Assembly: GCA_050298595.1 (NCBI GenBank) | Contig: JBNKUM010000030.1 | Location: forward strand, 34,723 to 98,722 | Direction: 5' to 3' | Origin: Gammaproteobacteria bacterium | GTDB lineage: Bacteria; Pseudomonadota; Gammaproteobacteria; GCA-001735895 | Length of the DNA: 64,000 bases | Made by a program: the position numbers and the translations under genes | Notes under the pieces: model-generated | Told to the model about the DNA's origin: nothing | What the model saw: only the letters and a program-made list of their open reading frames with translations | Database searches by the model: none | Part shown: piece by piece, positions 9,465-51,777 of the stretch | Position numbering within the stretch: position 1 is the stretch's first letter | Layout of the letters: each line of letters begins with the position of its first letter

Positions 9465-10103
9465 TGATTATTTCCTTATATGGGATTTTCAGATTCTACT
9501 CGAGCAACACGAATGTGTGGCCGATCAATGAAGTCATTCTTGAACGGGTGTAGAAACGTTGATTACGCAGTTGATGATTGAGTTTTTTACGCTCATTTTC
9601 GATCTGTTTGCGCACTTTCAGCATGGTTATATACTGACCATCATCAATATTGATATCAGTTGTGCTGGCGGACTTGTCGAGGGCCGCTGGAAACGACTGC
9701 ATATTAAGCATGGCACCTTTCTTCTCCTTAGATAACACGATGTTTCGCTTATCCTTAGTTCACGATTACCACGTTTCGAACTTTATAATGTTGGCTAGTA
9801 CAGACCTGCACTCACTAATCCATGTTAGTTTCTCCTAATAATAGGCCTAACATGGGGATATGTCGAAATTTTGAGCAGGTTTTGTCGTGTTTTATACTCT
9901 GACAGTTAAAAAAGGGCTGCTTTCCTGTTTAACTACTGTGGTGAAAACTCGCTTAAAGAGTCAGAGTGTCCATCAGCTTTTTGTTGCTGAAGACAATAAT
10001 CTACAGCTTCTCTAATGAGAGAATTGAAGAAATAGCCTGAACTTGCGAGGTATTATTTCACCTTAAAAAACTATTCTACCTATACCTACAGTGAAGGAGT
10101 TAC

Positions 10104-10197
10104 AAGGCTTCCGCGTCCTGCTCTCGCCCCTTACCTATGTCCCTATAGGCAAGGCTTACGCGTCCTGCTCACGCCCCTTACCTATGTCCCTATAGGC
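10104..10197 (-). repeat. Two tandem copies of a 47-bp REP-like unit
   Basis: AAGGCTT(C/A)CGCGTCCTGCTC(T/A)CGCCCCTTACCTATGTCCCTATAGGC twice; related inverted copies at ~10276-10320 and 28584-28628. Confidence 0.9.
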
Positions 10198-10198
10198 A

Positions 10199-10252
10199 AC
10201 GTGCAATTCAGCTCGTAGCGGAATTCACCTATTTGGTTTTCAGCATGGATGA
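10199..10252 (-). repeat. Dispersed ~52-bp repeat (copy of 4694-4745)
   Basis: Near-identical to the reverse complement of 4694-4745. Confidence 0.85.
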
Positions 10253-10581
10253 TGTTATTCCGCGAATGCATGGACGCCTACATGGACGTAGGTGTTAGAG
10301 CGAAGCAGGAGGCCAGAGCCGGTGCATAGGAGCGTGAAAAGATATTTAGACTGTAATGGTCCACGAAACAGTGAGTTACCCTCTAATACGAGCCATCAAC
10401 TGCGGAATCCAGGTTTAACTGTTCCAGACGTCGCCAGTTTTCCTGATAAGTTAAAGCTGCCAAACCTTAAATCATTCTTATAAAGGCATTGGTATAAGTC
10501 ATAATTTACTTCAAACTATTACCGTGTAAGATACTGGGTAAAATCATCTAACTCAGAATGCTCTTTAGAAGAAGGACAAAA

Positions 10582-25569: not shown

Positions 25570-25803
25570 TTATCTAATAAGGGTGTTATCACGTAAATCA
25601 TCCAACTGGTCTTCCAGTTTCTGGATTTCCAGCCTGATGAATTTAGCTCTCGGTGAATTCGGATCCATTTGTTCGATTTTTTTTACCGAACTGGTCATTT
25701 CATTAATGGTTTTTACCAGTCTAATTTCATCTACAGATAAGTCGAAATTTCTAAGTCTTTGACTTACCGTTTGAGTTTCTTTATCAAATTTTGTCATACT
25801 CAT
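25570..25803 (-). CDS. Small coiled-coil hypothetical protein
   Basis: 77-aa ORF with protein-like composition and an upstream AGGT; family not recognised. Confidence 0.6.
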   Translation of the reverse strand: MSMTKFDKETQTVSQRLRNFDLSVDEIRLVKTINEMTSSVKKIEQMDPNSPRAKFIRLEIQKLEDQLDDLRDNTLIR

Positions 25804-27106: not shown

Positions 27107-27592
27107 CTAATCGTCAATTCCAGCAACAGTTACCTGAGGTAATTGAGGGGTAGATAGTTCAGTATTGTTTTTTGGAGGCATGACAGTTGCTTCCCCCTGA
27201 GTAACAACTTCACCCCTTTGATTGAGTACTTTACAGTCAAGTACCACATACTGTCGTTTTTCAATTTTTTCTTTTACCGTTAAAACTGCAGTTAAGGTAT
27301 CTCCAATCCGTACCGGTCGTTTAAATTTCAAATCCTGAGATATATAGACACTACCTGGCCCAGGCATAACCATACCGATAACTGTAGAGATTAATCCCGC
27401 CGACCACATACCATGAGCAATACGAGTTTCAAAAAGCGTAGTCGCTGCATATTCGTCATCAAAATGAACAGGATTTATATCCCCACTAGTTTCACCGAAC
27501 AGAACAATATCGCGTTCGGTTAATTGCCTGGTAAATCGACCTTCAGCACCAATCTCAAGGTCATCATATGTCTGTGGTTTTAATTTATTCAT
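27107..27592 (-). CDS. MaoC/PhaJ-family (R)-specific enoyl-CoA hydratase
   Basis: SGDINPVHFD, RIAHGM, PGPGSVY, FKRPVRIGD hot-dog fold motifs. Confidence 0.9.
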   Translation of the reverse strand: MNKLKPQTYDDLEIGAEGRFTRQLTERDIVLFGETSGDINPVHFDDEYAATTLFETRIAHGMWSAGLISTVIGMVMPGPGSVYISQDLKFKRPVRIGDTLTAVLTVKEKIEKRQYVVLDCKVLNQRGEVVTQGEATVMPPKNNTELSTPQLPQVTVAGIDD

Positions 27593-27978
27593 AAATATTA
27601 AGGGTTTATTAAGTTCTTATGGTCAGATATTGATGGGAAAATAATCAATAGAGAACTCCTGCAAAACTATTGAATATTGCCAAAGGTATATTAACTTATG
27701 TTTATTTTGGCTGCTCATTAAAGTTATACGCAACCATTGAAATTCAATCATAACCCATTGAGTTGTGACATGCTCTAGCTACGATTCTGAACTGAGTATT
27801 CATGATAATGGGTAGTTTCATGATGCTAATTTCGTGCTTGCAGGCTACTCTTTTATTTCTTTCACTAAAGATAAAGTGAACCGTGTATGCTGCAACGCAA
27901 TATATCACCGGGACAGACCATTAAATCCACTAATAAAACCCTTACATTTCAACAACTTAAAAAGTTAAAAATTTTTTG

Positions 27979-28007
27979 TTGACAAGCCCGATAAACAGGC
28001 CTATAAA
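27979..28007 (+). promoter_or_regulatory. Sigma70 promoter
   Basis: TTGACA (27979-27984), 17-bp spacer, TATAAA (28002-28007); AT-rich upstream tract. Confidence 0.8.
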
Positions 28008-28037
28008 GCGCACATTCAGACAACAGATATTTAGCTT

Positions 28038-28088
28038 ATGAGTACAAAACAACTTACTTTTACACATTTTTTAACACAGGGGTTTTAA
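28038..28088 (+). CDS. Putative attenuator leader peptide MSTKQLTFTHFLTQGF
   Basis: 16-codon ORF 30 bp after the -10 box; 3 Phe (all TTT) and 4 Thr; stop overlaps a hairpin upstream of a terminator. RBS weak. Confidence 0.5.
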   Translation: MSTKQLTFTHFLTQGF

Positions 28089-28120
28089 CCCAGTCTGTTG
28101 TGGTTCTACTTCGATTTTTG

Positions 28121-28147
28121 AAGGGTCGCCACAGGCGGCCCTTTTTT
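28121..28147 (+). terminator. Intrinsic terminator (attenuator-like)
   Basis: AAGGGTCGCC-aca-GGCGGCCCTT followed by a long T tract. Confidence 0.85.
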
Positions 28148-28192
28148 ATTTTTAACCTTAACTTTTTATTTTTACTTTTTTTGGAGACGATA

Positions 28193-28279
28193 ATGGAAAA
28201 CAAAATGATTGTTCAAGTTGGTATGGCATACATTGGTGCTATCCTGGCTTTATCGATGGTTTCTGTGCTAGTTGCATAA
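28193..28279 (+). CDS. 28-aa hydrophobic small protein MENKMIVQVGMAYIGAILALSMVSVLVA
   Basis: GGAG RBS at 28183-28186, ATG 28193, TAA 28277-28279; single TM-like helix; own terminator downstream. Below the ORF-track cutoff. Confidence 0.7.
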   Translation: MENKMIVQVGMAYIGAILALSMVSVLVA

Positions 28280-28299
28280 TTAAGACAGAATACGCTATC

Positions 28300-28331
28300 A
28301 AAAAAGGCACCCTACTTAGGGTGCCTTTTTT
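28300..28331 (+). terminator. Intrinsic (bidirectional-type) terminator
   Basis: AAAAAAGGCACCCTA-ct-TAGGGTGCCTTTTTT. Confidence 0.9.
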
Positions 28332-28370
28332 ATTTGCAGCTAGAATAAACATCCTCAGTATCCTGAACTC

Positions 28371-28730
28371 CAGGGCCTGCTAACACGTGTTGATTGCCAC
28401 TGCTGGAGGGCATTTTTTTCCAGCAAGGCAGAAGGCGCGCTGTGTAGTCATTCTACATAAGCAACTTATGTCCATGGAAGGACTGTATTTCGACAATGCA
28501 GGAGCAATTGTCGTGATAACGTAGCTGGGAGAAAAATGCCCCCAGCCCTTTAGGTTGTGGCTAAAAATGTGCCACTCGTTGTTGCCTACATGGACGTAGG
28601 TAAGGAGCGTGAGCAGGAGCGGAAGCTTTGCTCGTCGCTCATTTGGAATGACCAAACTTCGTTCCTCGCGCCTAGATTGGCACATTTTTAGCCACAACAG
28701 AGACAATCAAATTAGTGTTAACAGGCCCTG
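28371..28730. mobile_element. ~360-bp MITE with nested REP-like inserts
   Basis: TIRs CAGGGCCTG(C)TAACAC ... GTGTTAACAGGCCCTG; internal palindrome GTTGTGGCTAAAAATGTGCCA/TGGCACATTTTTAGCCACAAC; contains the 47-bp REP-like unit at 28584-28628. Confidence 0.85.
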
Positions 28731-28765
28731 ACCATCATGTAGAATACCGACTCTTCTTTTTCTGA

Positions 28766-30157
<1,392 letters not shown>

Positions 30158-30171
30158 AGGTAAATGTAGCC

Positions 30172-31326
30172 ATGTGGGAATTAAAGAACTTCGATGTCGA
30201 GTTGTTTCTAGCCGAGTACTGGCAAAAAAAACCTGTATTGATTCGACAGGCTTTTCCAGGTTTTCAAACTGTGCTTTCACCCGAAGAGCTTGCTGGCCTG
30301 GCCTGTGAAGAAGGTGTGCATTGCAGACTGGTGATAGAGAAAGATGCCGCAGAGCCCTGGCAATTAACCTATGGTCCGTTCAAGGAAGAAGACTTCACCA
30401 GCCTGCCAGAAACACATTATTCACTGCTGGTATCCGAATGCGAAAAATGGATTCCAGAGCTGCAGGATCTGGTTGAGTGTTTTAATTTTATCCCCAAATG
30501 GCGTATTGACGACCTGATGATTTCCTATGCCCCGGATCAGGGATCGGTCGGACCTCATATCGATGAATACGATGTGTTTCTGATTCAGGCCAATGGCAAG
30601 AGAGTCTGGTCTATCGAGAGCGAAATCAAACACAATCCAGAACTGGTTGGCGATGTGGATCTTGCTCTCATGAAGGAATTTAATGCTGATCAGGAATGGT
30701 TAATGGAACCAGGTGATATGTTATATCTACCACCCAAAATCCCCCATCATGGCGTTGCAGTAGGCGATGGATGTATGAATTATTCAGTCGGTTTTAGAGC
30801 TCCTGCGGTTAGCGATATCATGGATAGTTTCCTGATGGAAGCCAGTGATAAAGGTCTGACCGATGAACGTTATTATGATGTACCATTAAAACCAGGCCGC
30901 GATGCTGCTGAAATATGCGATGAAGATATCACTAAATTCAAATCTATGATTTACCAGATGCTGGATAAATCTGACCCCATATGGGCGGATGTAGTTGGTA
31001 AACTGGTTTCCGACAGCACGCTCTCAGAAGATGTTGAAACTATTCAATGTGACAGCATTGAACAAGCTTCACAACAGTTATGGCAGAAACACCCGGATAG
31101 TAAAATATTCTATCACCGCGATGACAGCCAATTGAGAGTCTACTTTAATGGAGAAGTTAAAGCTCTTGAAATTTCAGACATTAATTTCGATTTCTGTAAA
31201 ACATTATGTAACCAGTGCCTGATCACGATTAGTGATTATTACGACATACTACCGCAGGATGCACGCGAGCTATTTATGCAGCTAATCGACAGTCGAGCAT
31301 TAATCCCTGTACTGGATGATGACTGA
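30172..31326 (+). CDS. roxA: JmjC/cupin ribosomal protein uL16 hydroxylase-like (RoxA/YcfD)
   Basis: YWQKKPVLIR, WRIDDLMISYA, VGPHIDEYDVFL, PGDMLYLPP..HHG, YSVGFRAP; follows purB. Confidence 0.9.
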   Translation: MWELKNFDVELFLAEYWQKKPVLIRQAFPGFQTVLSPEELAGLACEEGVHCRLVIEKDAAEPWQLTYGPFKEEDFTSLPETHYSLLVSECEKWIPELQDLVECFNFIPKWRIDDLMISYAPDQGSVGPHIDEYDVFLIQANGKRVWSIESEIKHNPELVGDVDLALMKEFNADQEWLMEPGDMLYLPPKIPHHGVAVGDGCMNYSVGFRAPAVSDIMDSFLMEASDKGLTDERYYDVPLKPGRDAAEICDEDITKFKSMIYQMLDKSDPIWADVVGKLVSDSTLSEDVETIQCDSIEQASQQLWQKHPDSKIFYHRDDSQLRVYFNGEVKALEISDINFDFCKTLCNQCLITISDYYDILPQDARELFMQLIDSRALIPVLDDD

Positions 31327-31750
31327 GTACATGATACAGTTTGCCGACTGGAAAGAAGATGAAGAGCGCTTAACAGCACTACGTCATCAAGTGTTTGTTT
31401 GCGAACAAAAGGTACCCGTCGAGATTGAAATCGATGACATGGATAGTCAATGTCAGCATATAAAAGCCTGTCTGGAAGATGAACAGATCATTGGCACAGC
31501 ACGCCTGCTACCCGATAATTACGTAGGCAGGATGTGTGTAGCCAAAGAATATCGTCGCCAGGGCATTGCCGGGGCGATGCTAGAATTCATCATCCAGCAC
31601 GCCAGGTATCAAAATTTTAAATCGCTACACCTGAATGCCCAGATATCCGCTCAGCCTTTTTATGAAAGCTACGGATTTGTTGCAGATTCTGATATCTTTA
31701 TGGAAGCAGGCATACCACACAGACATATGAGCTTGCCACTCGACACCTGA
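31316..31750 (+). CDS. GNAT N-acetyltransferase (ElaA/YjcF-like)
   Basis: LRHQVFVCEQ, IGTARL, GRMCV..RRQG, FYESYGF, EAGIPH. Confidence 0.9.
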   Translation: MMTEYMIQFADWKEDEERLTALRHQVFVCEQKVPVEIEIDDMDSQCQHIKACLEDEQIIGTARLLPDNYVGRMCVAKEYRRQGIAGAMLEFIIQHARYQNFKSLHLNAQISAQPFYESYGFVADSDIFMEAGIPHRHMSLPLDT

Positions 31751-51186: not shown

Positions 51187-51777
51187 ATGAACAATACTCA
51201 CCAATTATCCAGAAAAGATCTGTGGTCACTGGAAGAATATGCAGAAAAGCGTAGTGATTATCGCCAGCAGGTGATGGCACATAAAAAGAATCGTCAGGTA
51301 GCCTTAGGACCCAATGCAACCCTGTATTTTGAAGACAGGCTGACCATTCGTTATCAAATCCAGGAAATGCTGCGAATCGAAAAAGTCTTCGAAGCCGATG
51401 GCATAGAGGATGAGCTACAGGCCTACAACCCTCTGATTCCTGATGGAAAAAACTGGAAAGCCACCTTCATGATTGAATATGGTGATCCTGAAGTACGTGC
51501 TGCTCAGCTGGAAAAAATGGTTGGCATTGAAGAACTGGTATGGGTTCAGGTTAATGACATGGACAGGGTCTGGTGCATATCGAATGAAGATCTGGAGCGT
51601 ACTACTGCAACAAAAACCTCTTCGGTACATTTCATGCGTTTCGAATTAAGCGATGAAATGATTAGCGCTTTAAAAAATGGTGGTGAATTGAAGATGGGTG
51701 TTGAACACAGCATTTATACCCATCAACTGACTATTGATGACGACACCAAAGCCTCCCTGATCAACGACCTCGATTAA
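51187..51777 (+). CDS. DUF3501 family protein
   Basis: [26 protein letters not shown]; standard third gene of the rubrerythrin cluster. Confidence 0.9.

Follow-up and report, generated by a model that had tools for sequence, protein, structure and literature searches.

Layout of the unit upstream of purB

In a 64,000-nucleotide (nt) stretch of contig JBNKUM010000030.1 from a gammaproteobacterium, referred to here as the window, a compact unit at 27979-28331 sits in a 1.2-kb intergenic gap that extends from a MaoC-like dehydratase gene on the minus strand (27107-27592) to purB on the plus strand (28787-30157). The unit consists of a σ70-type promoter, a strong internal terminator (T1), a Shine-Dalgarno (SD) sequence with a 28-codon hydrophobic open reading frame (ORF), and a final terminator (T2), and this layout, isolated from purB, is real. 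A sequence-only reading of the same DNA had described it as an amino-acid attenuator whose sole cargo is a 28-residue membrane peptide, and every element listed there is present at 27979-28331, as judged by inspection of the sequence and by translation. Within 350 nt on one strand lie the best promoter of the entire 64-kb window and two of its three best terminators, a clustering of signals that exceeds chance. The whole 322-nt RNA has a fold z-score of −5.55, with none of 100 shuffled sequences folding equally well. No paralogue of the unit or of the peptide occurs within the window.

The promoter (27979-28007, plus strand) combines TTGACA (27979-27984) and TATAAA (28002-28007) across a 17-nt spacer, and an A/T-rich tract lies directly upstream (27958-27978). 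It matches the consensus at 11 of 12 positions, which bears out the near-consensus assignment made earlier, and it is the sole site with at least 11 of 12 matches on either strand of the 64 kb. Mononucleotide shuffles of the whole window contain 1.9 ± 1.4 such sites; the count is thus not enriched, and it is the placement of the 27979 site that is not ordinary. The one mismatch is the final base (A) of the −10 hexamer, and a promoter scan that demands T at this position therefore does not list the site. Transcription would start near 28014.

Terminators were sought on both strands of the window as hairpins followed by T runs, which gave 39 terminator-like hairpins, among which T1 ranks second and T2 third. 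T1 (28120-28156) has a G+C-rich 11-bp stem (28120-28144) with a 3-nt loop, a stability of −18.1 kcal/mol, and behind it TTTTTTATTTTT, with a T run of the form T6AT5; it is a terminator on the plus strand only, there being no T run behind the hairpin on the minus strand. T2 (28300-28331, plus strand) has the form A6-GGCACCC-loop-GGGTGCC-T6 and is terminator-like on both strands, its minus-strand version ranking 6 of 39; its stability is −20.5 kcal/mol with the A/U extension and −17.8 kcal/mol in the hairpin scan. The two terminators lie on the same strand, 183 nt apart and just 3′ of the 27979 promoter, and the GC-rich terminator, the long U tract and the second strong terminator of the sequence-only reading are all recovered in them. 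T2 would separate the unit from purB. T1 is linked to the SD sequence by a U-rich spacer (28145-28182, plus strand) of 38 nt and 11% G+C.

The 28-codon ORF (28193-28279, plus strand; MENKMIVQVGMAYIGAILALSMVSVLVA) is preceded by GGAG (28183-28186), 6 nt before the ATG at 28193, and its stop codon lies 20 nt ahead of T2. The duplex of GGAG with the anti-SD sequence is worth −6.4 kcal/mol; 19% of 36 long genes have one at least this strong, as do 3.4% of 2000 random positions. In a codon log-odds model trained on the 36 ORFs of at least 200 codons in the window, the reading frame of the ORF scores 0.390 per codon, and its two alternative frames score −0.743 and −0.014. Twenty-eight-codon chunks of true genes (n = 516) score 0.256 ± 0.143, which puts the ORF at the 83rd percentile, and spurious short ORFs inside genes (n = 184) score −0.013 ± 0.162, with two reaching 0.390. 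Among the 638 ATG-initiated ORFs of 20-60 codons in the window, it ranks top on codon score and SD combined, and it is one of two that pass both a codon score of at least 0.3 and an SD energy of −5 or lower. Furthermore, the ORF has 38% G+C where the spacer has 11%, the shift in composition falling exactly at the ORF boundaries. The ribosome-binding site and 28-codon ORF proposed earlier are thus both present, with gene-like codon usage and SD, and the ORF looks like a genuine unannotated gene. The other ORF that passes both filters (51694-51777, plus strand, 27 codons) may be no more than the C-terminal end, in frame, of a longer gene.

These figures bear on an alternative in which the 28-codon ORF is untranslated and the locus comprises only a small RNA (sRNA) gene and a bidirectional terminator. 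The abundance of short ORFs in the window speaks for it, as does the outcome of the homology searches described below, which gave neither a homologue nor a family match; the combined codon and SD rank, the two of 184 spurious ORFs that attain its codon score and the composition change at its edges speak against it, and we regard it as improbable.

The encoded peptide consists of MENK followed by a 24-residue hydrophobic stretch. Its grand average of hydropathy is 1.52, and residues 5-28 have a mean hydropathy of 2.15, which fits the single membrane-spanning segment claimed for it earlier. We predict one membrane-spanning helix after the short polar MENK head, with the polar N terminus probably facing the cytoplasm; the C terminus has no polar tail. 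Both this ORF and a 16-codon ORF upstream of T1 are too short for standard gene callers, a point on which we agree with the sequence-only reading, and the protein collections searched contain nothing below 30 amino acids (aa).

Small single-pass membrane proteins and type I toxins of enterobacteria, such as KdpF, YohP and TisB, are comparable in being shorter than 30 aa, in forming a single hydrophobic helix and in being missed by annotation. The peptide differs from them in showing no similarity to any family model searched, and the locus has no adjacent transporter or oxidase partner gene and no evident antisense RNA. Small size, hydrophobicity, insulation and orphan distribution together resemble a type I toxin, and all are found here: 28 residues of extreme hydrophobicity, tight transcriptional insulation and an orphan distribution. 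The view that this is a toxin-like membrane peptide, silenced by T1 together with an RNA antitoxin, concerns function and overlaps with other explanations of the locus; it has nevertheless only a slim chance of being correct. Antisense promoter-like sites over the ORF reach just 8 of 12 matches (at 28215 and 28216), and pairing of the 5′ RNA to the translation start region is worth −18.7 kcal/mol against a shuffle mean of −22.4 kcal/mol, 84% of 500 shuffles doing equally well or better. PADLOC, Pfam and NCBIfam gave no match, and the absence of a polar C-terminal tail also counts against a toxin.

Test of the leader RNA as an amino-acid attenuator

The RNA that would end at T1 (28014-28153, plus strand) is about 135 nt long. 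The segment 28014-28152 folds with −35.1 kcal/mol (z = −4.23); once T1 is removed (28014-28119), z is −1.33 and 18 of 200 shuffles fold equally well, so that there is no sign of a structured aptamer of the riboswitch type in this segment, and Rfam gave no family match there. A predicted 9-bp long-range helix (28020-28028 with 28093-28101, plus strand) encloses the 16-codon ORF and occurs in both the minimum free energy and the centroid structures; taken alone, it is without statistical support.

The 16-codon ORF (28038-28088, plus strand; MSTKQLTFTHFLTQGF) had been proposed as a leader peptide. Translation confirms its three Phe and four Thr residues and the aromatic PSLLWFYFDF* that follows in frame past the stop codon, and the hairpin GGGT (28080-28083)-TTTA-ACCC (28088-28091) is likewise there, with 4 bp and overlapping the stop codon of the ORF. 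Its codon score is 0.001 per codon, a value as low as this being found in 3.7% of true-gene chunks, and 46% of the 184 spurious ORFs match or exceed it, although the comparison with 28-codon chunks is a rough one. The ORF has no SD sequence, the duplex being worth +0.4 kcal/mol, a weak point given that E. coli thrL itself reaches only −2.4 kcal/mol. The four Thr and three Phe codons are scattered, the longest run of one residue being 1. Among random short ORFs of the window (12-22 codons, n = 335), the commonest residue occurs at least 4 times in 33%, and the two commonest together at least 7 times in 24%; in thrL, for comparison, Thr occurs 8 times, the two commonest residues add up to 12, and there are runs of 3. 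The 16-codon ORF is probably not a functional regulatory ORF.

We then modelled the effect of a translating ribosome on T1, with E. coli thrL as the control. A footprint extending 15 nt to the 5′ side and 12 nt to the 3′ side of the A-site codon's first base was set on each of the 17 codon positions and the RNA was folded. With the complete terminator present, the mean pair probability of T1 stays at 0.89-0.95 at all 17 positions; in the same equilibrium test the thrL terminator falls only to 0.54-0.80, at codons 9-10, which makes the test a weak discriminator. It was therefore repeated with the RNA cut before the 3′ arm of the terminator. In this form the test reproduces the thrL switch, the pairing of the 5′ arm dropping from 0.81 (codons 1-15) to 0.13-0.22 (codons 16-22), whereas for the 5′ arm of T1 the value is 0.70 throughout, whether or not a ribosome is present. 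The best upstream helix with the T1 5′ arm reaches −7.4 kcal/mol versus −18.1 kcal/mol for T1; by the same method, the thrL antiterminator and terminator are nearly balanced, at −18.7 and −19.1 kcal/mol. No ribosome-dependent antiterminator is seen in this model.

The constant arm pairing of 0.70 stems from a local hairpin at 28099-28133 (−11.9 kcal/mol), which overlaps T1 and, by 3 nt, the long-range helix 28020-28028/28093-28101. Through this hairpin, the 1:2/2:3/3:4 layout of a classical attenuator is formally present, although not in the form originally drawn; the alternative pairing of ACCC with the GGGT of the terminator, on which that drawing relied, exists but amounts to only 4 bp. When the upstream RNA is shuffled with dinucleotide composition kept, 38% of 300 sequences pair the T1 5′ arm at least as much. 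Given this result and the unremarkable structure of the leader, we put little weight on the layout.

Rfam gave no match at the gathering score anywhere in the window. In the region 27600-28800, with E values up to 10 admitted, there were 23 weak matches, all below the gathering score and nearly all on terminator hairpins. They include Phe_leader (30.1 and 27.8 bits) and Thr_leader (20.6 bits), against a gathering score of 55, and these fall on the T2 hairpin and not on the leader. The family check that had been suggested for the leader thus returned no match over it.

The model put forward by the sequence-only reading, in which the peptide is the sole cargo of a pheL/thrL-type attenuator responsive to Phe or Thr, is therefore not supported, and we consider its probability to be very low. 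It can draw on the short ORF with four Thr and three Phe, which ends 32 nt ahead of a strong terminator, and on the 4-bp alternative pairing. Against these stand scattered codons with an ordinary residue bias, the lack of a coding signal, an antiterminator far weaker than that of thrL where the thrL control switches clearly, leader models of Rfam that match T2 alone and below threshold, and a cargo other than a biosynthetic operon. The likeness to the known amino-acid attenuators (E. coli thrL and pheL; RF00506 Thr_leader and RF01859 Phe_leader) lies in the order of promoter, short ORF and strong intrinsic terminator ahead of the cargo, and in terminator strength (−18.1 kcal/mol here, −19.1 kcal/mol in thr). 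The differences are that there is here no run of regulatory codons, no comparable antiterminator, no dependence on ribosome position and no Rfam match over the leader, and that the cargo is a 28-aa peptide and not a biosynthetic operon.

The same structures could instead serve a general translation sensor, responding to ribosome availability or to antibiotic-type stalling, in which translation of the 16-codon ORF as an upstream ORF (uORF) opens the 28020-28028/28093-28101 helix and lets the hairpin 28099-28133 compete with T1. The three helices do partly overlap, at 28099-28101 between the long-range helix and the alternative hairpin and at 28120-28133 between the alternative hairpin and T1, and in the model a ribosome on the first codons or on the stop codon allows the full −11.9 kcal/mol hairpin to form. 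A published case is the uORF-dependent attenuation of the small gene duf1127 in Sinorhizobium meliloti, in which a premature terminator separates a uORF from a small gene that stands alone; the system responds to translation status and not to a single amino acid, and attenuation was demonstrated with reporters and requires C-rich codons where the uORF begins (PMC12218461). The present unit departs from that system in having a uORF without coding signal, modelling without a switch, and as its cargo a membrane peptide without a family and not a DUF1127 protein. With the T1 5′ arm paired at 0.70 whatever the ribosome position, a T1 probability that never falls below 0.89 and more than a third of the shuffles (38% of 300) pairing the arm equally, we think it quite unlikely that the unit works as a translation sensor.

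Proposed premature termination ahead of an orphan membrane peptide

The reading that we favour, at somewhat less than even confidence, is that of one small self-contained unit in which a premature terminator yields an sRNA-like RNA and read-through expresses an orphan membrane peptide. The σ70-type promoter at 27979-28007 would start the RNA, and most transcripts would end at T1, releasing an unstructured, CA- and U-rich, sRNA-like RNA. The fraction that reads through T1 would carry the U-rich spacer, a good SD sequence and the 28-codon gene, and would end at T2. As a premature terminator, T1 would hold expression of a very hydrophobic peptide low, and read-through could be a fixed leak or could be set by a factor acting from elsewhere, presumably not by stalling at Phe or Thr codons. 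What the analysis shows is the signals and their clustering, the coding-like character of the 28-codon ORF and the lack of a ribosome-dependent antiterminator; the start site, the behaviour of RNA polymerase at T1, the translation of the peptide and its insertion into the membrane, and whatever the short RNA may do are all inferred here.

Several features of the locus argue for this arrangement: only one good promoter precedes both T1 and the 28-codon ORF, the 38-nt spacer offering no promoter-like site better than 7 of 12; T1 and T2 rank second and third in the window and share a strand; and T1 is as strong, by the same measure, as the terminator of the thr attenuator (−18.1 and −19.1 kcal/mol). 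The codon score, SD energy and G+C content of the ORF, and the position of its stop codon shortly before T2, point the same way. There is also precedent for its parts in print, namely premature termination in 5′ untranslated regions (UTRs) yielding stable short RNAs (PMC7815308) and an attenuator with only a small gene as its cargo (PMC12218461).

Several points weigh on the other side. No mechanism is visible by which so strong a terminator as T1 would be read through, and the only alternative hairpin (28099-28133) pairs its 5′ arm no better than the shuffles mentioned above. The promoter lacks the T at the end of the −10 hexamer, which is a strongly conserved position, and a weak internal promoter may lie in the T1 tail or spacer. 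The codon test rests on 28 codons and 36 training ORFs, with starts set at the first ATG. Furthermore, no relative of the RNA or of the peptide was found in the searches described below, so that conservation, covariation and the ratio of nonsynonymous to synonymous substitution rates (dN/dS) lend no support.

The possible internal promoter is central to a different division of the locus, into two adjacent independent genes: a stand-alone trans-acting sRNA (27979 to T1) and a small-protein gene with its own weak AT-rich promoter in the T1 tail or spacer. An sRNA gene is classically recognised by an orphan promoter that is followed by a strong terminator and a long U tail, and this combination occurs here in an intergenic position; T1, moreover, looks too efficient to pass much transcription. 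The promoter-like sites in the T1 tail and spacer reach 7 of 12 matches at most, at 28143 and 28145, with a −10 hexamer (TATTTT) that ends at 28172, and would start an RNA just before the SD sequence. Sites of 7 of 12 are, however, common noise, the resulting 5′ UTR would be just about 12 nt long, and the 5′ RNA has neither significant structure beyond T1 (z = −1.33) nor an Rfam family. We judge two genes to be a serious contender, though on balance unlikely.

A further reading would make T1 a conditional premature terminator of an undescribed kind, with neither a structured aptamer nor an amino-acid leader. Its control might lie, for instance, with an RNA-binding protein or with general translation status, either of them acting on the CA- and U-rich leader; the 28-aa membrane peptide, an orphan, would be all that it controls, and the 135-nt leader set free by termination would have a second role as a trans-acting sRNA. 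To this combination we assign a low probability. Short RNAs made by termination in a 5′ leader that could act in trans are exemplified by E. coli ChiZ and IspZ (PMC7815308) and, reportedly, by rnTrpL of S. meliloti (PMC6614838); the difference is that a trans-acting role is here purely inferred, with no known target, seed or conservation.

If the peptide is real, it would be one more unannotated single-pass membrane protein, from a lineage whose nearest relatives by purB, within the best 80 stretches retrieved from at least 600, are gammaproteobacteria of the Thiotrichales type (Cocleimonas, Thiothrix). The locus would then illustrate how a small-protein gene can sit behind a strong leader terminator, and would be useful for the annotation of small proteins and sRNAs. 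No concept is changed by it: a small gene behind a premature terminator (PMC12218461) and leader-derived sRNAs (PMC7815308) have both been published already. The literature searched for context contained no publication on this unit or on the peptide.

Search for relatives and sequence context

Relatives were sought by scanning genomes with purB for syntenic loci, and the best 80 of at least 600 stretches were kept. The nearest purB sequences among these are 82% identical (a gammaproteobacterial metagenome-assembled genome, L001), 76% (Cocleimonas) and 71% (Thiothrix), and the species from which the window derives is not represented there. Because the nearest purB is only 82% identical, the lineage appears to be poorly sampled in the genome collection. 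The comparison with related genomes that the sequence-only reading had suggested gave nothing above chance: tblastn with both peptides and blastn with 27593-28786 against these loci returned best E values of 0.83 and 0.64. L001 has only 167 nt upstream of purB, and that sequence differs from the window. Downstream, the order purB, JmjC/RoxA-like gene and GNAT gene is common to the window (28787-31750) and L001 (168-3131), at 82%, 67% and 55% identity, respectively.

For protein searches, the query was the in-frame 59-aa ORF at 28100-28276, which contains the 28-aa peptide. The protein collection gave nothing in the length classes of 30-31, 32-104 and 105-2000 aa, the last of which produced nine candidates, none with E ≤ 10; since the collection holds no protein shorter than 30 aa, true relatives of 28 aa cannot appear in it. 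The sole match among the representatives of 1.84 billion proteins, a 2337-aa protein, is weak and covers only the non-coding N-terminal part of the query, and we consider it spurious. In the ESM Atlas the best score was 0.87, below the 0.9 level for a lead, and a Pfam match to Med17 (E = 0.32) was taken as noise. NCBIfam, PADLOC, PHROGs and PDB sequences gave no match, nor did tblastn of the peptide against plasmids and phages or blastn of the unit against plasmids, where the low-complexity filter may mask a hydrophobic peptide.

On the left of the gap, beyond the MaoC-like gene and further upstream, lie a YebC-family gene and the gene for a ROK-family regulator; a 77-aa ORF between these two (25570-25803, minus strand) has no Pfam or NCBIfam match. 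On the right, purB is followed by the JmjC/RoxA-like gene and then by the GNAT gene, and the purB stop codon overlaps the listed TTG start of the JmjC gene by 4 nt.

The gap contains two further terminator-like hairpins on the plus strand. One (27810-27858, −11.3 kcal/mol) precedes the 27979 promoter by about 120 nt and has TTTTATTT behind it; the other, a weaker one (28375-28419, −9.9 kcal/mol), followed by ATTTTTTT, lies 45 nt past T2 within a repeat element. This element lies between T2 and purB (28371-28730) and comprises three nested inverted repeats, at 28371-28386/28715-28730, 28408-28421/28528-28541 and 28554-28577/28675-28698, which look like a palindromic insertion, either composite or of the type of a miniature inverted-repeat transposable element (MITE). 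A 108-aa minus-strand ORF across the repeat region has no Pfam match, and the outer right arm overlaps a promoter-like site of purB (28718-28745). Within the same region, 28581-28631 shares a short repeat family with 10103-10293: a stretch of about 50 nt, 86% identical, is present in two tandem copies at 10103-10200, and an exact 18-nt palindromic core recurs at 10276-10293, an arrangement that resembles a repetitive extragenic palindromic (REP)-like element.

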